A stretch of 64,000 nucleotides of DNA, taken from assembly GCF_011045215.1 (NCBI RefSeq), contig NZ_CP049201.1; one strand, given 5' to 3'. This DNA is from Escherichia coli (lineage in GTDB: Bacteria; Pseudomonadota; Gammaproteobacteria; Enterobacterales; Enterobacteriaceae). Of the stretch, positions 29 to 40,730 are shown in pieces. How positions within the stretch are numbered: position 1 is the first letter of the stretch; each line of letters begins with the position of its first letter. The notes under the pieces were generated by a model. That model did no database searches and was not told where the DNA came from. It saw only the letters and a list, made by a program, of their open reading frames with translations. Made by a program: the position numbers and the translations under genes.

Positions 29-955
29 ATGATTGAATTTAGCCATGTCAGCAAACTGTTTGGCGCACAAAAAGCCGTTAACGATCTCAATCTCAATTTT
101 CAGGAAGGGAGTTTTTCGGTGCTGATTGGCACATCTGGCTCCGGCAAATCCACCACCCTGAAAATGATTAACCGCCTGGTGGAGCATGACAGCGGAGAGA
201 TCCGCTTTGCCGGAGAAGAAATTCGCTCGCTGCCAGTACTGGAGTTGCGCCGCCGTATGGGCTATGCCATTCAATCTATTGGCCTGTTTCCCCACTGGAG
301 CGTGGCACAAAACATTGCCACCGTGCCGCAATTACAAAAATGGTCGCGGGCGAGGATTGACGATCGTATCGACGAATTAATGGCGCTACTGGGGCTGGAG
401 TCAAATTTACGTGAGCGTTATCCACATCAGCTTTCCGGTGGTCAGCAGCAACGTGTGGGAGTGGCGCGTGCACTGGCTGCCGATCCGCAAGTCTTACTGA
501 TGGATGAACCTTTTGGCGCACTGGACCCGGTAACGCGCGGCGCGTTGCAACAAGAGATGACGCGCATTCACCGTTTGCTGGGGCGCACTATTGTGCTGGT
601 CACTCATGATATTGATGAGGCGCTACGGCTGGCAGAACATCTGGTATTGATGGATCACGGTGAAGTGGTGCAGCAGGGGAATCCGCTGACGATGCTGACT
701 CGTCCGGCGAATGATTTTGTCCGCCAGTTTTTTGGACGTAGTGAACTGGGTGTGCGCCTGCTTTCGTTACGTAGTGTGGCGGATTACGTGCGTCGCGAAG
801 AACAAGCAGAAGGTGAGGCACTGGCAGAAGAGATGACGCTACGCGATGCGCTCTCTCTGTTTGTCGCGCGGGGATGCGAGGTGCTGCCGGTGGTGAACAC
901 GCAGGGCCAGCCTTGCGGCACGCTGCATTTTCAGGATCTGCTGGTGGAGGCGTAA
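29..955 (+). CDS. yehX: ABC transporter ATP-binding subunit of the YehZYXW osmoprotectant (glycine betaine-type) uptake system
   Basis: 308 aa ORF; Walker [13 protein letters not shown] signature LSGGQQQRV, Walker B LLLMDEP; C-terminal CBS-like tail; followed 4 bp later by the permease gene. Confidence 0.9.
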
Positions 956-959
956 GCGT

Positions 960-1691
960 ATGAAGATGTTGCGCGATCCGCTGTTCTGGCTCATTGCTTT
1001 GTTTGTGGCACTGATTTTCTGGCTGCCTTACAGCCAGCCGCTGTTTGCTGCCTTGTTCCCACAACTGCCACGACCCGTTTATCAGCAAGAAAGTTTTGCA
1101 GCTCTGGCACTGGCTCATTTCTGGCTGGTGGGAATTTCGAGTTTGTTTGCGGTGATCATTGGTACTGGTGCCGGAATTGCTGTCACTCGCCCGTGGGGCG
1201 CGGAATTTCGCCCACTGGTGGAAACTATTGCCGCCGTTGGACAGACTTTTCCGCCCGTCGCGGTGCTGGCGATCGCCGTTCCGGTGATCGGGTTTGGTCT
1301 GCAACCAGCGATTATCGCCTTGATCCTTTACGGTGTGCTGCCCGTCCTGCAGGCGACACTTGCCGGGCTGGGAGCGATTGATGCCAGCGTGACAGAAGTT
1401 GCGAAAGGTATGGGAATGAGTCGTGGTCAGCGACTGCGTAAGGTCGAGCTACCGCTGGCGGCTCCGGTGATTCTGGCGGGCGTGCGAACTTCGGTGATTA
1501 TCAACATTGGTACGGCGACGATCGCCTCAACGGTAGGGGCCAGCACGCTGGGTACGCCCATCATCATCGGGCTTAGCGGATTTAATACCGCGTATGTGAT
1601 CCAGGGGGCGTTACTGGTGGCACTGGCGGCGATCATCGCAGACCGCCTGTTTGAAAGGCTGGTGCAGGCGCTTAGCCAGCACGCAAAATAA
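960..1691 (+). CDS. yehW: ABC transporter permease subunit of the YehZYXW system
   Basis: 243 aa hydrophobic multi-TM ORF immediately downstream of yehX; matches K-12 YehW length and context. Confidence 0.9.
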
Positions 1692-1779
1692 AGGTATAAC
1701 CTGCGAGCATGACGCCACCAATTCCGCCTAACGCCATAAACAGGAACAGGGCGATGACCCCAATTTTAGCTATGCGCAT
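1675..1779 (-). CDS. yohO: small (34 aa) hydrophobic membrane protein, convergent with and overlapping the yehW 3' end
   Basis: Hand-translated minus-strand [38 protein letters not shown], below the 60 aa cutoff of the ORF track; single predicted TM helix; position between mlrA and yehW matches the K-12 small protein YohO as I recall it. Confidence 0.6.
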
Positions 1780-1838
1780 AATGCACTCCTTATGTTAACG
1801 AAAGGATTGTACAGTAAAGCGCATTTGTTAACGAATCA

Positions 1839-2570
1839 TTAAATGCCGAGTGGGAAAATATCATAGCCTTGTTCTTGCCAACTGGTGAGTTGCTGTTGTT
1901 GGGCGGAGGTTCGATTTTCACCGCACCACACCAGCAATGTACGGCCTTCGAACAGTTCAGGGCGTAGTTGATTGAGCGAGTGGGCGAGGACATCAATGCG
2001 CCATCCTTGTTGACTGGCAATCCAGCCCTCCAGCCACAGACGGGTGGTATCGTGAATATTCCAGCCAACCACCAGCGCATCTTTACCCTGTTTTTTACGT
2101 GCCGAAGCCAGACAGATGGCGATGTAGTTGATCAGTACGCCGTCGAGGATCGCCAGCAGCGCCTGGAGAGTCGGTTGTTGGCACTGAAGCCGTCGGCGCA
2201 GAGGAATAAACAGATGCGTGGTGAGCGTCTGGGCGGGGTAATCCTGACCGCGCTCTTTGATCCACGTTCGCAGGCTATGCAGATTGCCGCTTTGCAAGTA
2301 AGTCAGTAATGTTTCTTGCTGATCGCGCCAGCCGTTCTGCACATCAACATTTTCATTACTGAGCAGCATTTTAACTTTGCTGACCTGCACGCCGTTGTCG
2401 ATCCAGCGTTTGATCTCGCGGATCCGGTCAATATCGGCATCGTTGAACAGCCGATGACCGCCGTCTGTCCGTTGCGGTTTCAGCAATCCGTAACGCCTCT
2501 GCCACGCGCGTAACGTGACAGGGTTAATATCACAAAGCAACGCCACTTCACCAATTGTGTAAAGCGCCAT
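1839..2570 (-). CDS. mlrA: MerR-family transcriptional regulator (activator of csgD/curli)
   Basis: 243 aa; N-terminal MerR HTH (YTIGEVALLCDINPVTLRAWQRRYGLLKPQRTDGGHRLF); K-12 context. Confidence 0.9.
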   Translation of the reverse strand: MALYTIGEVALLCDINPVTLRAWQRRYGLLKPQRTDGGHRLFNDADIDRIREIKRWIDNGVQVSKVKMLLSNENVDVQNGWRDQQETLLTYLQSGNLHSLRTWIKERGQDYPAQTLTTHLFIPLRRRLQCQQPTLQALLAILDGVLINYIAICLASARKKQGKDALVVGWNIHDTTRLWLEGWIASQQGWRIDVLAHSLNQLRPELFEGRTLLVWCGENRTSAQQQQLTSWQEQGYDIFPLGI

Positions 2571-2791
2571 CGTCTCACCCTTGCTCGCGAGGTCCCGGTT
2601 TAACTTTAGACGCAGTTTTGCGAACCAGGTAGTTTTACCCGTTTTTTGTGCATCTATAGGGTGATTTTATTTTTGCCAGGCGATTTTGAGTGATCGTACT
2701 CACGAATTCTCATTTTTCTGCAAGAGTTCAAAGAAAGTTAAACGCAGGCAATGTATGTTACGCGTTTTAAAGGGAAGTGTGGTTTGCGGGT

Positions 2792-4477
2792 ATGTACGAT
2801 TTTAATCTGGTGTTGCTGCTGCTTCAGCAGATGTGCGTTTTTTTAGTCATTGCATGGTTAATGAGTAAAACGCCATTATTCATACCGTTAATGCAGGTCA
2901 CGGTTCGTCTGCCGCATAAATTTCTCTGCTACATCGTCTTTTCCATCTTCTGCATCATGGGCACCTGGTTTGGGTTGCACATTGACGATTCTATTGCCAA
3001 TACCCGTGCGATAGGCGCGGTAATGGGCGGCTTACTCGGCGGTCCGGTCGTCGGTGGGCTGGTTGGCCTGACCGGCGGGTTACATCGATATTCGATGGGG
3101 GGCATGACCGCGCTAAGTTGCATGATCTCGACCATCGTTGAAGGATTGCTCGGCGGCCTGGTACACAGCATCCTGATCCGTCGCGGGCGCACTGATAAAG
3201 TCTTTAACCCCATTACCGCTGGTGCCGTCACGTTCGTCGCTGAAATGGTGCAAATGCTGATCATCCTGGCGATCGCCCGACCTTATGAAGATGCGGTGCG
3301 TCTGGTGAGTAATATTGCTGCGCCAATGATGGTCACCAATACCGTCGGCGCGGCGCTGTTTATGCGTATATTGCTCGATAAACGCGCGATGTTTGAAAAA
3401 TACACTTCGGCTTTTTCTGCCACTGCGCTGAAAGTGGCAGCCTCGACGGAAGGCATTTTGCGCCAGGGGTTTAACGAAGTGAACAGCATGAAAGTGGCAC
3501 AGGTGCTGTATCAGGAGCTGGATATTGGTGCAGTCGCGATTACCGATCGAGAGAAATTGCTGGCCTTTACCGGAATTGGTGACGATCACCATTTACCCGG
3601 CAAACCGATTTCTTCGACTTACACCTTAAAAGCGATTGAAACCGGTGAAGTGGTCTACGCTGATGGCAACGAAGTACCTTATCGTTGCTCTTTGCATCCG
3701 CAATGCAAACTGGGGTCGACGCTGGTAATTCCGTTGCGTGGTGAAAATCAGCGGGTGATGGGCACCATCAAATTGTATGAAGCCAAAAACCGTTTATTTA
3801 GTTCAATCAACCGCACGTTGGGTGAGGGGATTGCGCAATTGCTTTCGGCGCAGATCCTTGCCGGGCAATATGAGCGGCAAAAAGCGATGCTCACCCAGTC
3901 AGAGATCAAACTGCTTCACGCCCAGGTGAATCCCCATTTTTTGTTTAATGCGCTTAACACCATTAAAGCGGTGATCCGCCGCGACAGCGAACAGGCCAGC
4001 CAGCTGGTGCAGTATCTTTCCACTTTTTTCCGCAAAAACTTAAAGCGGCCTTCGGAGTTTGTTACTCTCGCCGACGAAATTGAACATGTGAACGCTTATC
4101 TGCAAATTGAAAAGGCGCGCTTCCAGTCGCGGTTGCAGGTCAACATTGCTATTCCGCAAGAATTATCCCAGCAGCAATTGCCCGCGTTTACCCTGCAACC
4201 GATAGTGGAAAACGCCATTAAACATGGGACATCACAACTGCTGGATACAGGGCGAGTGGCAATCAGCGCCCGACGTGAGGGGCAACATTTGATGCTGGAG
4301 ATCGAAGACAATGCCGGTTTGTATCAACCGGTAACCAATGCCAGTGGGCTGGGGATGAATCTGGTGGATAAGCGTTTACGTGAACGGTTTGGCGATGACT
4401 ATGGGATAAGCGTCGCCTGTGAGCCTGATAGTTACACCCGAATAACGTTACGACTACCATGGAGGGACGAGGCATGA
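2792..4477 (+). CDS. btsS: LytS-type sensor histidine kinase of the pyruvate-responsive BtsS/BtsR system
   Basis: 561 aa from ATG 2792 (ORF track begins 15 nt upstream at GTG); 5TM Lyt domain, GAF, His-kinase region; stop overlaps btsR start (ATGA). Confidence 0.9.
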
Positions 4478-29914: not shown

Positions 29915-32395
29915 ATGTTGAGAATGACCCCACTTGCATCAGCAATCGTAGCGTTATTGCTCGGCATTGAAGCTTATGCAGCTGAAGAAACCTTTGATAC
30001 CCATTTTATGATAGGTGGAATGAAAGACCAGCAGGTTGCAAATATTCGTCTTGATGATAATCAACCCTTACCGGGGCAGTATGACATCGATATTTATGTC
30101 AATAAGCAATGGCGCGGGAAATATGAGATTATTGTTAAAGACAACCCGCAAGAAACATGTTTATCAAGAGAAGTTATCAAGCGGTTAGGCATTAATAGCG
30201 ATAACTTCGCCAGCGGTAAGCAATGTTTAACATTTGAGCAACTTGTTCAGGGTGGGAGCTATACCTGGGATATCGGGGTTTTTCGTCTCGATTTCAGTGT
30301 CCCGCAGGCCTGGGTGGAAGAACTGGAAAGTGGCTATGTTCCACCGGAAAACTGGGAGCGGGGTATTAATGCGTTTTATACCTCTTATTATGTGAGTCAG
30401 TATTACAGTGACTATAAAGCGTCGGGTAATAGTAAGAGTACATATGTACGTTTTAACAGCGGGTTAAATTTACTGGGGTGGCAACTGCATTCTGATGCCA
30501 GTTTCAGTAAAACAAATAACAATCCAGGGGTGTGGAAAAGCAATACCCTGTATCTGGAACGTGGATTTGCCCAACTTCTCGGCACGCTTCGCGTGGGTGA
30601 TATGTACACATCAAGCGATATTTTTGATTCTGTTCGCTTCAGAGGTGTGCGGTTGTTTCGTGATATGCAGATGTTGCCTAACTCGAAACAAAATTTTACG
30701 CCACGGGTGCAGGGGATTGCTCAGAGTAACGCGCTGGTAACTATTGAACAGAATGGTTTTGTGGTTTATCAGAAAGAGGTTCCTCCTGGCCCGTTTGCAA
30801 TTACAGATTTGCAGTTGGCCGGTGGTGGAGCAGATCTTGATGTCAGCGTGAAAGAGGCGGACGGTTCGGTAACCACCTATCTGGTGCCTTATGCAGCCGT
30901 GCCAAATATGCTGCAACCCGGCGTGTCGAAATATGATTTTGCGGCGGGTCGTAGCCATATTGAAGGGGCGAGCAAACAAAGTGATTTTGTCCAGGCGGGT
31001 TATCAGTATGGTTTTAATAACTTATTGACGCTGTATGGTGGCTCGATGGTCGCGAATAATTATTACGCGTTCACTTTGGGGACTGGCTGGAATACACGCA
31101 TTGGTGCCATTTCCGTCGATGCCACGAAGTCGCATAGTAAACAAGACAACGGCGATGTGTTTGACGGGCAAAGTTATCAAATTGCCTACAACAAATTTGT
31201 GAGCCAAACGTCGACGCGTTTTGGTCTGGCGGCCTGGCGTTATTCGTCGCGTGACTACCGGACATTTAACGATCACGTTTGGGCAAACAATAAAGATAAT
31301 TATCGCCGTGATGAAAACGATGTCTATGACATTGCCGATTATTACCAGAATGATTTTGGTCGCAAAAATAGCTTTTCCGCCAATATGAGCCAGTCATTGC
31401 CAGAAGGTTGGGGTTCTGTGTCATTAAGTACGTTATGGCGAGATTACTGGGGGCGTAGCGGCAGTAGTAAGGATTATCAGTTGAGTTATTCCAACAACCT
31501 GCGACGGATAAGCTATACCCTCGCGGCAAGCCAGGCTTATGACGAGAATCATCATGAAGAGAAACGTTTTAATATTTTTATATCGATTCCCTTTGATTGG
31601 GGTGATGACGTTTCGACGCCTCGTCGGCAAATATATATGTCTAACTCAACGACGTTTGATGATCAGGGGTTTGCCTCAAATAATACGGGATTATCAGGAA
31701 CAGTAGGGAGTCGGGATCAGTTCAATTATGGTGTCAACCTGAGTCATCAACATCAGGGAAATGAAACGACAGCTGGAGCGAATTTAAACTGGAACGCGCC
31801 GGTGGCAACAGTGAATGGCAGTTATAGTCAGTCGAGTACTTATCGACAGGCTGGAGCCAGTGTTTCAGGGGGCATTGTCGCCTGGTCGGGTGGCGTTAAT
31901 CTGGCGAACCGTCTTTCCGAAACGTTTGCTGTGATGAATGCGCCAGGAATTAAAGATGCTTATGTCAATGGGCAAAAATATCGCACAACAAACCGTAATG
32001 GAGTGGTGGTATACGACGGAATGACACCTTATCGGGAAAATCACCTGATGCTGGATGTGTCGCAAAGCGATAGCGAAGCAGAATTGCGCGGTAACCGGAA
32101 AATTGCCTCACCTTATCGCGGCGCGGTTGTACTGGTTAATTTTGATACCGATCAGCGCAAGCCCTGGTTTATAAAAGCGTTAAGAGCGGATGGGCAACCA
32201 TTAACGTTTGGTTATGAAGTCAATGATATCCACGGTCATAATATTGGCGTTGTCGGCCAGGGAAGTCAGTTATTTATTCGCACCAATGAAGTACCGCCAT
32301 CGGTTAATGTGGCAATTAATAAGCAACAAGGACTTTCATGCACAATCACCTTCGGTAAAGAGATTGATGAAAGTAGGAATTATATTTGCCAGTAA
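29915..32395 (+). CDS. yehB: outer-membrane fimbrial usher
   Basis: 826 aa from MLRMTPLASAIVALLLG; usher-sized beta-barrel protein between the chaperone and adhesin genes. Confidence 0.85.
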   Translation: MLRMTPLASAIVALLLGIEAYAAEETFDTHFMIGGMKDQQVANIRLDDNQPLPGQYDIDIYVNKQWRGKYEIIVKDNPQETCLSREVIKRLGINSDNFASGKQCLTFEQLVQGGSYTWDIGVFRLDFSVPQAWVEELESGYVPPENWERGINAFYTSYYVSQYYSDYKASGNSKSTYVRFNSGLNLLGWQLHSDASFSKTNNNPGVWKSNTLYLERGFAQLLGTLRVGDMYTSSDIFDSVRFRGVRLFRDMQMLPNSKQNFTPRVQGIAQSNALVTIEQNGFVVYQKEVPPGPFAITDLQLAGGGADLDVSVKEADGSVTTYLVPYAAVPNMLQPGVSKYDFAAGRSHIEGASKQSDFVQAGYQYGFNNLLTLYGGSMVANNYYAFTLGTGWNTRIGAISVDATKSHSKQDNGDVFDGQSYQIAYNKFVSQTSTRFGLAAWRYSSRDYRTFNDHVWANNKDNYRRDENDVYDIADYYQNDFGRKNSFSANMSQSLPEGWGSVSLSTLWRDYWGRSGSSKDYQLSYSNNLRRISYTLAASQAYDENHHEEKRFNIFISIPFDWGDDVSTPRRQIYMSNSTTFDDQGFASNNTGLSGTVGSRDQFNYGVNLSHQHQGNETTAGANLNWNAPVATVNGSYSQSSTYRQAGASVSGGIVAWSGGVNLANRLSETFAVMNAPGIKDAYVNGQKYRTTNRNGVVVYDGMTPYRENHLMLDVSQSDSEAELRGNRKIASPYRGAVVLVNFDTDQRKPWFIKALRADGQPLTFGYEVNDIHGHNIGVVGQGSQLFIRTNEVPPSVNVAINKQQGLSCTITFGKEIDESRNYICQ

Positions 32396-32410
32396 TAGTC
32401 AGGTGGTTCT

Positions 32411-33445
32411 ATGAAAATTCGCATAATGCTATTTATATTAATGATGATGGTTATGCCAGTGAGCTATGCAGCATGTTATAGTGAGTTATCTGTTCAGCAC
32501 AATTTGGTTGTTCAGGGGGATTTTGCACTTACTCAAACACAAATGGCGACCTATGAGCATAATTTTAATGATTCGTCATGCGTGAGTACAAATACTATCA
32601 CCCCTATGAGCCCGTCGGATATTATTGTTGGACTTTATAACGATACTATTAAATTAAATTTACATTTTGAATGGACCAATAAAAGTAACATCACGTTGTC
32701 AAATAATCAGACCAGTTTCACCAGTGGTTATTCGGTAACGGTGACACCTGCGGCTAGTAATGCAAAAGTGAATGTTTCTGCGGGGGGCGGCGGTTCAGTG
32801 ATGATTAATGGTGTAGCGACATTATCCAGTGCTTCATCATCGACACGCGGGAGTGCCGCAGTACAATTTCTACTGTGTTTATTAGGTGGCAAGTCATGGG
32901 ATGCATGTGTAAATAGCTACAGAAATGCATTGGCACAAAATGCAGGTGTCTATTCCTTTAATCTGACATTGTCATACAACCCGATAACCACAACCTGCAA
33001 ACCGGACGATTTATTAATTACTTTAGAGAGTATTCCCGTTTCACAATTACCAGCCACAGGTAACAAAGCAACAGTAAATAGTAAAAAAGGGGATATTATT
33101 CTGCGTTGTAAAAATTTATTAGGTCAACAAAATCAAACATCACGGAAAATGCAGGTGTATTTATCAAGTTCTGACTTGTTAACCAACAGCAACACAATAC
33201 TGAAAGGTGCGGAAGATAATGGCGTAGGATTTATTCTTGAAAGTAATGGTTCGCCAGTCACACTTTTAAATATCACTAACAGCAGTAAAGGATACACAAA
33301 TTTAAAAGAAATTGCGGCAAAGTCAAAACTTACAGATACAACGGTTTCAATTCCGATAACAGCCAGTTACTACGTCTACGATACAAACAAAGTTAAATCT
33401 GGCGCACTGGAGGCAACCGCACTAATCAACGTGAAATACGACTAA
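32411..33445 (+). CDS. yehA: fimbrial tip adhesin-like subunit
   Basis: 344 aa; signal peptide; two-domain size typical of tip adhesins; last gene of the operon. Confidence 0.8.
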   Translation: MKIRIMLFILMMMVMPVSYAACYSELSVQHNLVVQGDFALTQTQMATYEHNFNDSSCVSTNTITPMSPSDIIVGLYNDTIKLNLHFEWTNKSNITLSNNQTSFTSGYSVTVTPAASNAKVNVSAGGGGSVMINGVATLSSASSSTRGSAAVQFLLCLLGGKSWDACVNSYRNALAQNAGVYSFNLTLSYNPITTTCKPDDLLITLESIPVSQLPATGNKATVNSKKGDIILRCKNLLGQQNQTSRKMQVYLSSSDLLTNSNTILKGAEDNGVGFILESNGSPVTLLNITNSSKGYTNLKEIAAKSKLTDTTVSIPITASYYVYDTNKVKSGALEATALINVKYD

Positions 33446-33501
33446 TAACAAGCAAGACGAGCAAGTGGCTAATAATAAAAAATAACAAGGTGTCTGCATT
33501 T

Positions 33502-33528
33502 CCCCCTCATGATGAGGGGGCTTTTTTT
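33502..33528 (+). terminator. rho-independent terminator after yehA, overlapping the rcnB 3' end
   Basis: Stem ccccctcatgatgaggggg followed by ctttttttag. Confidence 0.55.
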
Positions 33529-33865
33529 AGCGATGATAAAAAATCTCACCGTCGTAGGCTTTAATGATTTTACCGTCGGTGTCGCTGATCAACACGTACG
33601 CGCCACCCATATAGGTCCAGTGCGTCCCGGCATCCGGCGCGGGCAGGTTACGTAACTGCCACTGCTTAATGTTGTACTCATCGGTTCGGTACATCTCTGG
33701 GACGGTATCACCTGGTTTGAAATGCTTAAAGTCAGCAATGAAACTACTTAACTCATACTTAGAAATTCCCGAGGTATTGGTCGAACCCGCGGTGGCTGGT
33801 GCGGCCCAGGCGGCACTGGTAACCAGCAAAAGCACACCCAGCAACATCTTATTTTTAATGGTCAT
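33527..33865 (-). CDS. rcnB: periplasmic Ni/Co homeostasis protein
   Basis: 112 aa from MTIKNKMLLGVLLLVTSAAWA (signal peptide); the 172 aa ORF-track form is an upstream in-frame extension. Confidence 0.85.
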   Translation of the reverse strand: MTIKNKMLLGVLLLVTSAAWAAPATAGSTNTSGISKYELSSFIADFKHFKPGDTVPEMYRTDEYNIKQWQLRNLPAPDAGTHWTYMGGAYVLISDTDGKIIKAYDGEIFYHR

Positions 33866-34083
33866 AAACTCTCCACTTTGGGGATCTGTAATATCAGTCG
33901 CATATCTTTCCTGCCATACAATATAACTGACAAGCGATATTTTGTTAGTGATCCCATGATTTCGTAAAAAGTGTAAATGAAAGGATGCCCTAAAAGCATC
34001 CTTATCGAGCAGAGAGTCAGCGGAAATAGCTGATTTAAGAATCATCCTGGGCTGAAGATAACATGCAAGCCTAAAGGATTGAG

Positions 34084-34908
34084 TTATCGCATTATGCCCA
34101 TGAAGCCATGTACGCCCATATACACACCAACTAAGCCAATCAACAGACTGGAAAAATAGGGGGCGCGTTTAGCGAGAGTGTTAAATCCGCTCCAGCGTTT
34201 TGCGACCTGTTGAACGCTGATTGCTGCGCCAACGCCTACGGTGACAAGCGTTAACGCCAGGCCAATGCTGAAACTGACGACCAGTGTTGCGCCCAGTGTC
34301 AGGGCTTTCAACTGAATGCATATCAACAGCACGGTAATTGCTGCCGGGCAGGGGATAAGGCCACCGGTTAAGCCAAATAACAAAATTTGCCAGTTGGTGA
34401 CCTCTCTACCATCAAAGCGTCGTTTAATGTCATTGGCATGGGCTCGTGCATGGGCATCCTGATACTCGCCATGTTCGTGATGGTGATGATGTCCATGGTC
34501 GTGGTGATCTTCGTGATCGTGGTGATGATGTTCATGATCATGCTCGTGCATATTCTCCAGCCAGTTGCGTTCGCCGCGCCAGGTACGCCAGAACATCCAG
34601 AACGCGGTGCCAATAATGATCACTGCGGAAATCAGCTGGAGCCACGGTTCTGCTGATTGAGCAGTAAAGCGCTTGCTGATCACCATCCCGCCAAAGGCAA
34701 CCAACCAGACCACCGCGGTATGCGAAATGGTTGCTGCCAGTCCGAGCATCACCGCCTGTTTAATGGTGCCTTTGATGGCGATGATAAACGCCGCCATCAT
34801 CGTTTTTGAGTGCCCTGGTTCCAGGCCATGAAGCGCACCAAGTAAGATGGCGCTGGGGATGAAGAACCAGGCGTTTCCTTGCTGAAGAAGAGTTGTAAAT
34901 TCGGTCAT
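34084..34908 (-). CDS. rcnA: nickel/cobalt efflux permease with His-rich cytoplasmic loop
   Basis: 274 aa; HEHDHEHHHHDHEDHHDHGHHHHHEHG loop; NiCoT-like TM core. Confidence 0.9.
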   Translation of the reverse strand: MTEFTTLLQQGNAWFFIPSAILLGALHGLEPGHSKTMMAAFIIAIKGTIKQAVMLGLAATISHTAVVWLVAFGGMVISKRFTAQSAEPWLQLISAVIIIGTAFWMFWRTWRGERNWLENMHEHDHEHHHHDHEDHHDHGHHHHHEHGEYQDAHARAHANDIKRRFDGREVTNWQILLFGLTGGLIPCPAAITVLLICIQLKALTLGATLVVSFSIGLALTLVTVGVGAAISVQQVAKRWSGFNTLAKRAPYFSSLLIGLVGVYMGVHGFMGIMR

Positions 34909-34945
34909 GATAATAATTCTTAGTATTAATTCGGCAATCTGATTC

Positions 34946-34960
34946 TACTCCCCCCCAGTA
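34946..34960. promoter_or_regulatory. RcnR operator site 1 (TACT-G6-N-AGTA type, read as TACTCCCCCCCAGTA on the plus strand)
   Basis: Matches the published RcnR recognition motif; located in the rcnA-rcnR divergent intergenic region. Confidence 0.75.
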
Positions 34961-34965
34961 CCTGA

Positions 34966-34980
34966 TACTACCCCCCAGTA
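34966..34980. promoter_or_regulatory. RcnR operator site 2 (TACTACCCCCCAGTA)
   Basis: Second copy of the TACT-G6-N-AGTA motif 20 bp from site 1. Confidence 0.75.
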
Positions 34981-35028
34981 GATTAATAGTGCTATGATTT
35001 TTCATATTCTTGTTAACCAGGTGTTGCC

Positions 35029-35301
35029 ATGTCTCATACAATCCGTGATAAACAGAAACTGAAAGCGCGTGCCAGTAAGATTCAGGGCCAGGTCGTGGCG
35101 CTCAAGAAAATGCTCGACGAGCCGCACGAATGCGCTGCAGTTTTACAACAGATTGCTGCTATCCGTGGCGCGGTAAACGGCCTGATGCGGGAAGTGATTA
35201 AAGGTCATCTGACAGAACACATTGTTCACCAGGGCGATGAACTAAAGCGTGAAGAAGATCTGGATGTCGTTCTGAAGGTGCTGGATTCTTATATCAAATA
35301 A
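35029..35301 (+). CDS. rcnR: Ni/Co-responsive transcriptional repressor (CsoR/RcnR family)
   Basis: 90 aa ([41 protein letters not shown]...); divergent from rcnA. Confidence 0.9.
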
Positions 35302-35389
35302 TTTATTAACGCGATTGTAAAACTGCGGTTTTTCCTCGTTTACAACGCGTGCGCTGGACATTACCATCTTCCTCTGCGATTTATCATCG

Positions 35390-35523
35390 CAACCAAACGA
35401 CTCGGGGTGCCCTTCTGCGTGAAGGCTGAGAAATACCCGTATCACCTGATCTGGATAATGCCAGCGTAGGGAAGTCACGGACCACCAGGTCATTGCTTCT
35501 TCACGTTATGGCAGGAGCAAACT
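35390..35523 (+). promoter_or_regulatory. TPP (THI-box) riboswitch in the thiM leader
   Basis: Leader contains ctcggggtgcccttctgcgtgaaggctgagaaatacccgtatcacctgatctggataatgccagcgtagggaa, the characterised E. coli thiM aptamer, followed by the SD-sequestering expression platform. Confidence 0.85.
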
Positions 35524-36312
35524 ATGCAAGTCGACCTGCTGAGTTCCGCGCAATCTGCGCACACGTTACACCTTTTTCACCAACATTCCCCTCTTGTGCA
35601 TTGCATGACCAACGATGTGGTGCAAACCTTTACTGCCAATACCTTGCTGGCGATCGGTGCATCGCCAGCGATGGTTATCGAAACCGAAGAGGCCAGTCAG
35701 TTTGCGGCTATCGCCAGTGCCTTGTTGATTAACGTTGGCACACTGACGCAGCCACGCGCACAGGCGATGCGTGCTGCCGTTGAGCAAGCAAAAAGCTCTC
35801 AAACACCCTGGACGCTTGATCCAGTAGCGATTGGTGCGCTCGATTATCGCCGCCATTTTTGTCATGAACTTTTATCTTTTAAACCGGCAGCGATACGTGG
35901 TAATGCTTCGGAAATCATGGCATTAGCTGGCGTTGCTAATGGTGGACGGGGAGTGGATACCACTGACGCCGCAGCTAACGCGATACCCGCTGCACAAACA
36001 CTGGCACGGGAAACTGGCGCAATCGTCGTGGTCACTGGCGAGATGGATTATGTTACCGATGGACATCGTATCATTGGTATTCACGGTGGCGATCCGTTAA
36101 TGACCAAAGTGGTAGGAACTGGCTGTGCATTATCGGCGGTTGTCGCTGCCTGCTGTGCGTTACCAGGCGATATGCTGGAAAATGTCGCATCTGCCTGTCA
36201 CTGGATGAAACAAGCCGGAGAACGCGCAGTCGCCAGAAGCGAGGGGCCAGGCAGTTTTGTTCCACATTTCCTTGATGCGCTCTGGCAATTGACGCAGGAG
36301 GTGCAGGCATGA
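35524..36312 (+). CDS. thiM: hydroxyethylthiazole kinase
   Basis: 262 aa ([34 protein letters not shown]...). Confidence 0.95.
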
Positions 36313-37109
36313 AACGAATTAACGCTCTGACGATTGCCGGTACTGATCCGAGTGGTGGTGCGGGGATTCAGGCCGATCTTAAAACCTTCTCGGCACTTGG
36401 CGCTTATGGTTGCTCAGTTATTACTGCACTGGTGGCGCAAAATACCCGTGGCGTACAGTCGGTGTATCGCATTGAGCCTGATTTTGTCGCCGCCCAGCTC
36501 GATTCGGTGTTCAGCGATGTGCGAATCGATACCACTAAAATCGGTATGTTGGCGGAAACCGATATTGTTGAAGCGGTGGCAGAACGGTTGCAACGTTATC
36601 AGATCCAAAACGTGGTACTCGACACCGTTATGCTGGCAAAAAGCGGCGACTCACTGCTTTCACCTTCGGCAGTTGCCACGCTACGCAGTCGATTATTGCC
36701 ACAGGTTTCATTAATAACGCCAAACTTGCCCGAAGCAGCCGCCTTGCTCGACGCGCCACACGCGCGCACCGAACAGGAAATGCTGGAACAAGGGCGATCG
36801 CTGTTGGCGATGGGCTGTGGCGCAGTGCTAATGAAAGGTGGTCATCTGGATGATGAGCAAAGCCCGGACTGGCTGTTTACCCGCGAGGGTGAACAACGGT
36901 TTACCGCACCGCGCATTATGACCAAAAACACCCACGGCACTGGTTGTACACTCTCTGCGGCGTTGGCTGCACTACGCCCGCGCCATACAAACTGGGCTGA
37001 CACCGTACAGGAGGCAAAAAGCTGGCTTTCATCGGCGTTAGCCCAGGCCGACACGCTGGAAGTTGGTCACGGTATTGGTCCGGTTCACCACTTCCACGCC
37101 TGGTGGTGA
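36309..37109 (+). CDS. thiD: hydroxymethylpyrimidine / phosphomethylpyrimidine kinase
   Basis: 266 aa ([27 protein letters not shown]...); 4-nt overlap with thiM. Confidence 0.95.
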
Positions 37110-37173
37110 GCACCGTACTATAGCTGCTTTGGTTATTGTCAGCCTTTGGCACTGACATTCAGGGATGAAACCA

Positions 37174-37992
37174 ATGCAGCTAAGAATTACCAGTCGAAAA
37201 AAACTCACCGCTCTATTATGCGCTCTTGGGCTAATTTCCATCGTTGCAATTTATCCGCGTCAGACGGTGAATTTTTTCTATTCGACAGCAGTTCAGATTA
37301 CAGACTACATCCACTTCTACGGTTATCGCCCGGTTAAATCTTTCGCTATTCGTATTCCTGCCAGTTACACCATTCACGGAATAGATGTTTCGCGCTGGCA
37401 GGAGCGGATCGACTGGCAGCGGGTGGCAAAAATGCGCGATAACGGTATCCGCTTACAATTTGCCTTTATCAAGGCGACGGAAGGCGAAAAGCTGGTGGAC
37501 CCCTATTTTTCGCGTAACTGGCAACTAAGCCGCGAAAATGGCCTGCTGCGCGGGGCGTATCATTATTTCTCCCCGTCGGTAGCAGCGCCTGTTCAGGCGC
37601 GATTATTTCTGCAAACGGTGGATTTCTCACAAGGCGATTTCCCTGCCGTGCTGGACGTAGAAGAACGGGGAAAATTATCGGCAAAAGAATTACGCAAGCG
37701 GGTAAGTCAGTGGCTAAAAATGGTCGAAAAAAGTACGGGGAAAAAGCCGATTATTTACTCAGGAGCCGTTTTTTATCACACCAATCTGGCGGGCTATTTC
37801 AATGAATATCCGTGGTGGGTGGCTCACTACTATCAACGTCGTCCGGACAATGACGGCATGGCCTGGCGCTTCTGGCAGCATTCCGACCGTGGACAGGTAG
37901 ATGGCATCAATGGTCCGGTGGATTTTAATGTATTTAATGGCACGGTGGAGGAGTTGCAGGCATTCGTTGATGGGATTAAAAAAACGCCTTAA
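37174..37992 (+). CDS. yegX: GH25-family lysozyme-like glycoside hydrolase (putative)
   Basis: 272 aa from MQLRIT (ORF track starts 3 codons earlier); N-terminal TM/signal; HGIDVSRWQERIDW motif typical of GH25 muramidases. Confidence 0.8.
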   Translation: MQLRITSRKKLTALLCALGLISIVAIYPRQTVNFFYSTAVQITDYIHFYGYRPVKSFAIRIPASYTIHGIDVSRWQERIDWQRVAKMRDNGIRLQFAFIKATEGEKLVDPYFSRNWQLSRENGLLRGAYHYFSPSVAAPVQARLFLQTVDFSQGDFPAVLDVEERGKLSAKELRKRVSQWLKMVEKSTGKKPIIYSGAVFYHTNLAGYFNEYPWWVAHYYQRRPDNDGMAWRFWQHSDRGQVDGINGPVDFNVFNGTVEELQAFVDGIKKTP

Positions 37993-38043
37993 ATAAGAAG
38001 CAGTGATATACTCCTACCAGACTCCCTGGCAGGAAAAAGACAA

Positions 38044-38790
38044 ATGGAACAAGCGCATACCCAGCTGATTGCCCAACTGAACGAGCGTATTTTAGCGGCG
38101 GATAACACGCCGCTTTATATTAAGTTTGCCGAAACGGTAAAAAATGCCGTGCGCAGCGGGGTGCTGGAGCATGGCAATATTTTGCCCGGTGAGCGTGATT
38201 TAAGTCAGTTAACCGGCGTTTCACGCATTACGGTGCGCAAGGCGATGCAGGCGCTGGAAGAAGAGGGGGTGGTGACGCGTTCGCGTGGTTACGGCACGCA
38301 GATCAACAACATCTTCGAATACTCGTTGAAAGAAGCGCGAGGTTTTTCTCAGCAGGTGGTATTGCGCGGGAAAAAGCCCGATACGCTATGGGTTAACAAG
38401 CGTGTCGTGAAATGTCCCGAAGAAGTCGCGCAGCAGCTGGCGGTCGAAGCGGGAAGTGATGTCTTTTTGCTTAAGCGTATTCGCTATGTCGATGAAGAAG
38501 CGGTATCGATTGAGGAATCGTGGGTTCCGGCGCATTTAATTCATGATGTTGATGCCATCGGAATTTCTCTTTATGACTATTTCCGCAGCCAGCACATTTA
38601 CCCACAACGTACACGTTCCCGCGTTAGCGCCCGGATGCCAGATGCCGAGTTTCAGTCACATATTCAGTTAGATAGCAAAATACCGGTGCTGGTGATCAAG
38701 CAAGTGGCGCTTGACCAACAGCAACGGCCTATTGAATACAGCATTAGCCACTGTCGCAGCGATCTATACGTTTTTGTGTGCGAGGAGTAG
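38044..38790 (+). CDS. yegW: GntR-family transcriptional regulator
   Basis: 248 aa; GntR HTH (LPGERDLSQLTGVSRITVRKAMQALEEEGVV) plus UTRA-like C-domain. Confidence 0.85.
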   Translation: MEQAHTQLIAQLNERILAADNTPLYIKFAETVKNAVRSGVLEHGNILPGERDLSQLTGVSRITVRKAMQALEEEGVVTRSRGYGTQINNIFEYSLKEARGFSQQVVLRGKKPDTLWVNKRVVKCPEEVAQQLAVEAGSDVFLLKRIRYVDEEAVSIEESWVPAHLIHDVDAIGISLYDYFRSQHIYPQRTRSRVSARMPDAEFQSHIQLDSKIPVLVIKQVALDQQQRPIEYSISHCRSDLYVFVCEE

Positions 38791-39729
38791 TTCCTCGCGC
38801 GTTGGCGCACAATCACCGCCCCGATGCCCGACAACCCACGACGCCACTGCATTGCCCAGTAATACGGCATCCGCCAGTGGCAGACCAGAGGCCAGCCCGG
38901 CAAGTACGCCACCGGCATGACTGTCGCCCGCCCCAATGGTGTCGACAACTTGCGTTGGAAATGCCGGAATGCAGGCAGAAGCGTCGTTGCTGAAATACCA
39001 TGCGCCTTCTTTATCGAGACGAACGATCAACGGCGCGGCAAATTTCTCCTGCCATTGTTTGCCAAGTGTTGTTATCTCTGCGGATAAAGCAAAACGTTCG
39101 GCGGCAATCTCAGCCTCTTGACGATTGAGCGACACTAAAGGGCGACAGGCCATGATCCGCGCCAGTAATGCGTCCGGGATATCGCCAATACGTGGGCCAA
39201 AATCGATAAACGGCGTCACGTCTTGCAGCTCTTCCAGCCATTCCACTAACAATTCGCCGCAGGGCGAGGCCAGTTGATAACCGGAAAAATAGAGCAGGCT
39301 GCCAGGCGCAACGGTTAATCGCGCCAGCCACTGGCGATTCCACTGATTTTCCACACCGCTGAATGACATAAAAGTGCGTTCGCCATCCGGCTCAACCAGC
39401 GCCAGGCACCAGCCGTTATCACCTTTGGCGTTATCGATCAGGCTGATTAACCCCTCTTTTGCCATCCGGTTGCGAATAATCTCCGCCCATACCCCCTGAC
39501 CGAGCGGCAAGGCATTACCCGCTTCGATGCCGAGGCGCTTTAACGCCACGGCAATATTCAGTGCGCAGCCGCCAACGTTAACGCTCTGCTGTTTCAGTTC
39601 GATATCGCACCCACGCCAGGGGAGGGCATAAGCGTCGGCGATCACGTCAATGACCGCCGCGCCGACGACCATCACCGGCTGACGCGTGGTTAATTCAGGC
39701 AGCAGCGTGTGTAATCGAGCGCCGCTCAT
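38764..39729 (-). CDS. yegV: PfkB-family sugar/nucleoside kinase
   Basis: 321 aa; ribokinase-like GG and DTIGAGD motifs; convergent with yegW, 3' ends overlapping 27 bp. Confidence 0.85.
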   Translation of the reverse strand: MSGARLHTLLPELTTRQPVMVVGAAVIDVIADAYALPWRGCDIELKQQSVNVGGCALNIAVALKRLGIEAGNALPLGQGVWAEIIRNRMAKEGLISLIDNAKGDNGWCLALVEPDGERTFMSFSGVENQWNRQWLARLTVAPGSLLYFSGYQLASPCGELLVEWLEELQDVTPFIDFGPRIGDIPDALLARIMACRPLVSLNRQEAEIAAERFALSAEITTLGKQWQEKFAAPLIVRLDKEGAWYFSNDASACIPAFPTQVVDTIGAGDSHAGGVLAGLASGLPLADAVLLGNAVASWVVGHRGGDCAPTREELLLAHKNV

Positions 39730-40730
39730 ACCGCCTCCCGTTGTTGACGATATTTCGCCAGCGCTGTGGCATAGCGGTTGAAATCAAGCTGATTTACCGC
39801 ATCCAGCTCCGCCTTTAACGCAGGATCGATAGCGTTAATGCCATGCAACGCGCCGCAGATTGCCGTCGCCATAGCACCGATGGTGTCTGTATCGCCGCCA
39901 AGGTTAGCGCACAGGACGGCGCAGCGATTCGGGTCGGTTTGTGCCAGTTCAACCAGCGCAATGGCGCACGGAACGGACTCAATAGTGCTGGTACCTGCGC
40001 CAACGACCTGGTAAAGCTGTTCGCTGGCGGATTCGGTGCCGTCGGCATTGCGCACAATTTTCAGCGCAATCTCCAGACGTGCTGCCAGTGAGGCGCTGAA
40101 GGTAGTGATGCGTTTTTGCTGTGCATGTCGCGCAATTGAAGGCAGTGAATCAACAATCGCTGACCAGCTTTCTCCGTCAATGGCACGGGAAATCGCCCAT
40201 GCGATGACTACCGCACCTGCAACCGCCAGATCGGATTTATGGGTCGGGCTGGACGCCAGCGCCACATCATCAATAAAGGAATCAACATCACGCGCCGGAA
40301 GCAAACAACCTAATGGCGAGACGCGCATCGCTGCGCCGTTGGTCACGCCGTTGTTTTCCAGTTCAGCAACGGGTTTACCGTCGCGAATGGCGTTGAGAGC
40401 AATCTTCGAGGTCGGACCTAGTACGTTTTTGTTAAAGGCGTCGAAACGCAGCGCCCAGTCGAGAATATTACGCCCAATCAGATCCGGATCGATCTTGCCT
40501 TCACGTTCCAGTAACGCATCCGCCAGACACAGCGCCATCGAGGTATCGTCGGTGAATTCGGCGCGGTTAAAATAACAGGCCGCGTTATTCTCCTTTGGTC
40601 CAGGCAGAAAACGGTCAATCCAGCCAAAGTGTGCTTTAACGCGGCTGCGTGGCCAAAGCTCGGAGGGCATCCCCATCGCATCCCCTAACGCCTGCCCATA
40701 AAGAGCACCGAGAATACGTTCTGTTTTCAT
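39726..40730 (-). CDS. yegU: ADP-ribosylglycohydrolase-family protein
   Basis: 334 aa; family fold recognised; 4-nt overlap with yegV. Confidence 0.85.
   Translation of the reverse strand: MKTERILGALYGQALGDAMGMPSELWPRSRVKAHFGWIDRFLPGPKENNAACYFNRAEFTDDTSMALCLADALLEREGKIDPDLIGRNILDWALRFDAFNKNVLGPTSKIALNAIRDGKPVAELENNGVTNGAAMRVSPLGCLLPARDVDSFIDDVALASSPTHKSDLAVAGAVVIAWAISRAIDGESWSAIVDSLPSIARHAQQKRITTFSASLAARLEIALKIVRNADGTESASEQLYQVVGAGTSTIESVPCAIALVELAQTDPNRCAVLCANLGGDTDTIGAMATAICGALHGINAIDPALKAELDAVNQLDFNRYATALAKYRQQREAV

Follow-up and report, generated by a model that had tools for sequence, protein, structure and literature searches.

The length of the central loop of the nickel/cobalt efflux protein RcnA is already known to vary, and the tract encoding it is an established typing marker in E. 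coli O157:H7, Salmonella and Klebsiella. Among the O157:H7 loci, TR7 is reportedly the locus of Noller et al. 2003 and O157-19 that of Keys et al. 2005. The MLVA locus TR7 has the unit GACCAC and is amplified with the primers CGCAGTGATCATTATTAGC and TGCTGAAACTGACGACCAGT (PMC2246123), and it is identical with O157-19 (PMC3768571). In Salmonella the locus STTR5 lies in yohM (= rcnA) and has CACGAC as its unit (PMC5183578, PMC1781188); a 54-nucleotide deletion in it, corresponding to (HD)9, arose during in vivo passage in chicken (PMC6760104). MLVA locus 27 of Klebsiella pneumoniae is likewise an array in rcnA, with the unit CATGGT and 0-19 copies (PMC3948817). Here we analyse the corresponding tract in a stretch of 64,000 nucleotides from the E. 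coli contig NZ_CP049201.1, referred to below as the window. We consider it very probable that this tract, which encodes the central His/Asp/Glu loop of RcnA, is the E. coli copy of the known coding VNTR and changes by slippage-type events, and that the window has a degenerate allele of it which rarely changes.

The window contains an open reading frame whose product matches the Pfam NicO profile (PF03824) over its full length (residues 13-273; E=7.8e-70), with a score of 235.9 bits that lies well above the curated cut-off of 27.7 bits. In 5365 of the 5426 complete E. coli genomes its orthologues bear the label 'nickel/cobalt efflux protein RcnA'. On the strength of this profile match and labelling, the open reading frame is rcnA and its product a predicted inner-membrane Ni(II)/Co(II) exporter. 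The order rcnR-rcnA-rcnB, which is typical of E. coli, is present in the window, and the same annotation is seen at orthologous loci:

34084 to 34908, minus strand: rcnA (yohM) coding sequence, 274 amino acids, NicO-family Ni/Co efflux protein, from the open reading frame and Pfam PF03824.
35029 to 35301, plus strand: rcnR, the divergent gene for a Ni/Co-responsive repressor, from the open reading frame; its product is WP_000019944.1 in every fetched locus.
33527 to 33865, minus strand: rcnB (yohN), downstream of rcnA and encoding the accessory subunit, from the open reading frame ending at 33527, with coordinates deduced from the rcnA-rcnB spacing in another E. coli locus (L009).

The genes thiM and thiD lie on the far side of rcnR, according to the open reading frames of the window and the annotations of related loci. 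A TPP riboswitch (RF00059, 71.2 bits, 35393-35489, plus strand) is located between rcnR and thiM, upstream of the latter, and has the same annotation in related genomes. The rcnR-rcnA intergenic region harbors two near-identical sites, TACTCCCCCCCAGTA at 34946-34960 and TACTACCCCCCAGTA at 34966-34980; the pattern TACT-N-C6-AGTA thus has two matches in this region versus 0.02 expected by chance. The RcnR operator motif described by Iwig and Chivers is reportedly TACT-G6-N-AGTA, and we take the two sites to be candidate RcnR operators. Across positions 30000-40000 the best of the matches in the 5,426 complete E. coli genomes has an identity of 99.2% over 10 kb; strain 88-3493 and strains of O169:H41 come closest, and no more than 6 records attain 99%. 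The window would thus derive from a lineage outside that collection, possibly Shigella or a less common clade of E. coli. One of the approximately 5,370 rcnA matches resides on a plasmid and not on the chromosome. A search of the PDB for a relative of RcnA recovered none, the only hits being spurious His-tag-like matches to cobaltochelatase chains.

The original prediction, made from this DNA alone, had placed a His-rich loop of RcnA, encoded by tandemly repetitive and slippage-prone DNA, at 34455-34550. This was the right place, though the span was about 13 nucleotides too wide on its low side, and the loop itself is borne out by the translation:

34468 to 34548, minus strand: His-rich loop core HEHDHEHHHHDHEDHHDHGHHHHHEHG, amino acids 121-147, degenerate allele of the length-variable tract, from the translation.
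34499 to 34526, minus strand: 10-nucleotide direct repeat ATCACCACGA, with two copies at 34517-34526 and 34499-34508, read on the gene strand.
34436 to 34455, minus strand: AHARAH segment, in which the direct repeat GCCCAT(GC) recurs at a spacing of 12 nucleotides (repeat family D3).

The 27 residues of HEHDHEHHHHDHEDHHDHGHHHHHEHG comprise 17 His, 4 Glu, 4 Asp and 2 Gly, and account for 17 of the 23 His of the protein, with the remaining 247 residues containing only 6 (Fisher p=1.4e-15); CAT and CAC are the only His codons used, numbering 14 and 9 respectively over the whole gene. As the loop is written almost wholly in CAY (His) and GAN (Asp/Glu) codons, its DNA is full of short direct repeats, of which the longest exact one is the 10-nucleotide pair ATCACCACGA with a spacing of 18. 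At lags divisible by 3, the DNA of the loop has a self-identity of 0.50-0.62, compared with about 0.27 for the remainder of the gene. However, shuffles of the 27 codons give equal self-identity at every lag (all |z| <= 1.5), and hence the repetitiveness of the window loop follows from its codon composition rather than from an ordered array. TRF reports weak arrays only, with periods of 18, 21 or 9, matches of 64-78% and scores of 35-65. We accordingly rejected a true tandem array in the window allele, given that the TRF rows are weak and no lag is enriched beyond composition. The description of the tract as tandemly repetitive is thus correct only in part for the window allele.

Mapping of the published TR7 primers (PMC2246123) to the window gave a site for each on either side of the loop:

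34266 to 34285, plus strand: TR7 primer site TGCTGAAACTGACGACCAGT, 0 mismatches.
34609 to 34627, minus strand: TR7 primer site CGCAGTGATCATTATTAGC, 1 mismatch.

The pair brackets the loop at 34468-34548 with an amplicon of 362 bp, and the window loop is at the orthologous position of TR7 / O157-19. TR7 and the window tract therefore share a genomic position, with both primers flanking the loop, but differ in content: where the O157-type gene has a GACCAC array, the window has a degenerate mix of CAT, CAC and GAN codons offering no scorable repeat allele. No perfect GACCAC tandem array was found in the window loop, the longest perfect tandem run there being two units of CATCAC.

The length of the loop was surveyed in the 5,426 complete E. 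coli genomes by means of two systematic samples of about 60 rows each, drawn at even steps down the match ranking. In the whole-gene megablast sample 51 of the 59 full-length rows span 825 nucleotides, and the other 8 gene spans are 789, 804, 822, 840, 849, 852, 858 and 870 nucleotides. In the sample based on the loop with 60 nucleotides on either side, 50 of 59 rows have the standard length, and the others differ from it by -21, -12, -1, +15, +24 (twice), +27, +33 and +51 nucleotides. Pooling the two gives 101 of 118 rows at standard length, so that a loop of 27 residues is found in about 86% and one of another length in about 14%; these frequencies come from samples and not a full census of a collection biased towards clinical clones. 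The proposed variation of loop length between strains is thereby borne out: about 14% of the sampled genomes depart from 27 residues, and far from being identical in all strains, the sampled spans differ by -36 to +51 nucleotides. Matches of the loop with its 60-nucleotide flanks that fall below 95% identity, which represent large indels, make up 673 of 5363 records. The 21 loci that were fetched have loops of 15-46 residues with 8-25 His, the shortest (15 residues, 8 His) being that of TUM17668 and the longest (46 residues, 25 His) that of the O157 strain PA8. In an alignment of the first nine RcnA proteins the length differences map to the loop, with the exception of a C-terminal Arg lost in two alleles. 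These two (L001 and L003, with loops of 32 and 35 residues) end one codon early, so that their protein length understates the gain in the loop by one residue.

The degenerate allele of the window type does not vary in length among genomes of K-12 derivatives, Nissle, NC101, ST131 and O111, a set of strains that presumably spans phylogroups A, B1 and B2. It thus appears to be length-stable over species-level divergence, whereas perfect arrays vary within a clone. Because the window allele is interrupted and degenerate, changes in it are expected to be rare, in keeping with a 27-residue length common to most of the species. Slippage-proneness, as originally proposed for this tract, is accordingly pronounced in perfect hexamer arrays, but the degenerate allele of the window itself keeps a single length.

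The perfect arrays of E. coli belong to two groups. O157-type alleles, (GACCAC)5-11, form a group of 262 genomes, among whose sampled rows n=6 was seen 30 times, n=7 15 times, n=8 5 times, n=9 3 times, n=10 once and n of at least 11 twice. In the sampled copy-number variants the flanks are otherwise identical. The diversity computed from these counts is about 0.63, which comes close to published values for TR7 / O157-19 of 0.65 (PMC3768571) and 0.71 (PMC2246123). The second group, of about 141 genomes including IAI39, has (CACGAG)3, 4 or 5 alleles, and some of these variants differ from the 4-unit allele by one unit alone. In both groups, copy number differs among otherwise near-identical strains. 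The (CACGAG)n array was not found named in the typing literature examined, but it is the same phenomenon as the known hexamer VNTRs. A generic E. coli MLVA locus, CVN014, has 2-11 copies within ST131 (PMC3407997); we considered whether it might be the rcnA loop, but it is probably a different locus, as a sampled ST131 genome has the standard 825-nucleotide rcnA.

Low-complexity tracts can invite the suspicion that such differences are artefacts of sequencing or assembly, and one case might be of this kind: in UTME-13 (L019) a single nucleotide is lost from a CCC run just outside the tract, the gene is annotated as 'frameshifted', and a homopolymer read error could be responsible. Nevertheless, the remaining sampled variants all keep the reading frame and are found repeatedly, in many assemblies made independently: an identity of at least 99% is reached by 70 records with the n=7 query and by 83 with the (CACGAG)4 query. 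Furthermore, the EDL933 assembly has n=6 GACCAC, in agreement with the TR7 allele 6 published for this strain from PCR-based MLVA (PMC3777172). An artefactual origin of the variation is therefore exceedingly improbable.

None of the loop indels examined breaks the reading frame, and each either has direct repeats at its boundaries or amounts to a whole repeat unit. Thus, locus L002 has lost 36 nucleotides between two copies of ATCACGAACAT, and strain 33F4 (L016) has lost 18 nucleotides between copies of CATCACCACGA, whose equivalent in the window is the 10-nucleotide ATCACCACGA pair. In L003 the 9-nucleotide CATCATCAC is duplicated, and in L004 3 nucleotides are lost from a CAC run. The GCCCAT repeats just downstream of the tract bound a 12-nucleotide deletion, of one AHAR unit, in strain HCM-28C-2 (L018). 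Among the perfect arrays, L014 and L015 differ by one CACGAG unit, and O157-type alleles differ by whole GACCAC units. Such repeat-bounded, whole-unit indels are what slipped-strand mispairing typically leaves behind where short direct repeats lie close together, and it is from this anatomy of the indels that we infer a slippage mechanism for the E. coli alleles. Slipped-strand mispairing, or deletion and duplication between short direct repeats, would add or remove 3, 6, 9, 12, 18 or 36 nucleotides, changing loop length and His count while the reading frame holds. Where a hexamer has turned into a perfect array, the tract behaves as a rapidly changing VNTR with variation inside a single clone; the hexamer concerned is GACCAC in the O157:H7 lineage, CACGAG in a second group of E. 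coli, and CACGAC and CATGGT in Salmonella and Klebsiella respectively. As the repeat-mediated indels are all multiples of three, they do not disrupt rcnA. In the few inactivated copies that were seen, the cause lies outside the repeat tract: besides the frameshifted gene of UTME-13, rcnA is truncated by IS421 in WS4437A-1 (L021, 301-1425), and an IS3-family element lies within rcnA in 81EVA (H240), a case seen in the sample of the loop with its 60-nucleotide flanks.

A different origin for the length differences would be homologous recombination that brings in complete rcnA alleles horizontally in place of the resident ones, with local slippage playing little part. Alleles do differ by SNPs besides indels, as in the 207-nucleotide variants with two extra SNPs. 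In addition, the atypical O157:H7 strain LSU61 (L011) has an RcnA loop identical to that of the unrelated baboon isolate PapM-32-1 (L013), namely (GACCAC)5 with a longer N-terminal part, together with a non-O157 rcnB allele. This suggests either ancestral retention or recombination at the LSU61 locus. However, recombination moves alleles and cannot create them, and O157-type as well as (CACGAG)n variants differ only by whole units in otherwise identical sequence, identities of 97.0-97.1% being explained entirely by a 6-nucleotide gap. Moreover, unit changes at TR7 have been directly observed in laboratory passage, at a rate of 1.3e-4 changes per generation (PMC3777172). Replacement as the main source of the length differences is thus improbable, and we favor local slippage, even though some differences between lineages, such as that of LSU61, may stem from recombinational allele replacement. 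In the O157-type loci (L006, L007 and L008; 327-998), genes for a hypothetical protein and an 'outer membrane protein' are found upstream of rcnR, at the position occupied by thiM and the TPP riboswitch in the window and most E. coli; this pattern would indicate an insertion or replacement adjoining rcnR in the O157-type lineage.

That the metal-binding capacity of the exporter might vary with loop length, as was also suggested originally, is plausible. In the literature the relation of loop length to metal resistance or function appears as speculation only, with no experiment linking them found: extreme lengths of STTR5 'may affect' stability or resistance (PMC5183578), its (HD)9 deletion 'may alter' sensitivity (PMC6760104), and for the RcnA of cable bacteria the choice between an exporter and a loop-mediated chelator is left undecided (PMC11247825). 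A stronger proposition is that loop length acts as an adaptive tuning knob, with selection acting on the number of His, through Ni/Co binding, buffering or efflux, and lengths being matched to niches. Several observations could be read in this way: one and the same loop has grown independently through different hexamers (in E. coli by GACCAC and CACGAG, in Salmonella by CACGAC and in Klebsiella by CATGGT), nickel-dependent cable bacteria have a much enlarged loop of 100-123 residues with 33-53 His (PMC11247825), and STTR5 alleles of S. Typhimurium cluster in the mid-range, for which a possible functional constraint was offered by the authors (PMC5183578). Yet the three studies just named (PMC5183578, PMC6760104, PMC11247825) only speculate on length and resistance, and the tolerance of anything from 8 to 25 His in intact genes suggests a weak constraint on the loop. 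Likewise, variation within the O157:H7 clone resembles a stepwise mutational distribution around n=6-7, and mutation by itself should give rise to arrays again and again where a tract is confined to CAY and GAN codons. Adaptive tuning is thus unlikely, and we rate as slightly less likely still its extension to a recurrently re-evolving evolvability module, in which independent DH, HE, HD and CATGGT arrays would supply a range of 8-25 His that tunes Ni/Co handling under niche selection. Were that the case, selection specific to each niche would act on the length alleles, which would then not be neutral typing markers. Intact genes, with a natural spread of 8-25 His, offer a ready allelic series with regard to Ni/Co handling.

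The significance of the tract is otherwise small beyond its existing use in strain typing: outside the O157 lineage most E. coli have the degenerate 27-residue allele of stable length, with a separate (CACGAG)n array varying in another group of about 140 genomes. In its repeat-mediated, slippage-type length change within a gene, the tract is reminiscent of phase-variable contingency loci. Unlike these, which switch genes on and off, the rcnA units are all multiples of 3 and keep the frame, so that there is no switch. We therefore rejected the rcnA loop as a contingency locus, its coding sequence being intact and the sole frameshift, in the CCC run, lying outside the tract. Klebsiella locus 27 resembles it in being a 6-nucleotide coding repeat in rcnA, but differs in its unit, CATGGT, and is matched at the level of the gene only (PMC3948817). 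Salmonella STTR5 is likewise an array of hexamers in the gene of the orthologous Ni/Co exporter, where it gives the central loop its His-Asp repeats, and is also highly polymorphic and used for typing (PMC5183578, PMC1781188, PMC6760104). It differs in the species, in the phase of its unit, CACGAC, and in its dominant alleles of 8-14 units, which form arrays much longer and faster-changing than anything in the window allele.
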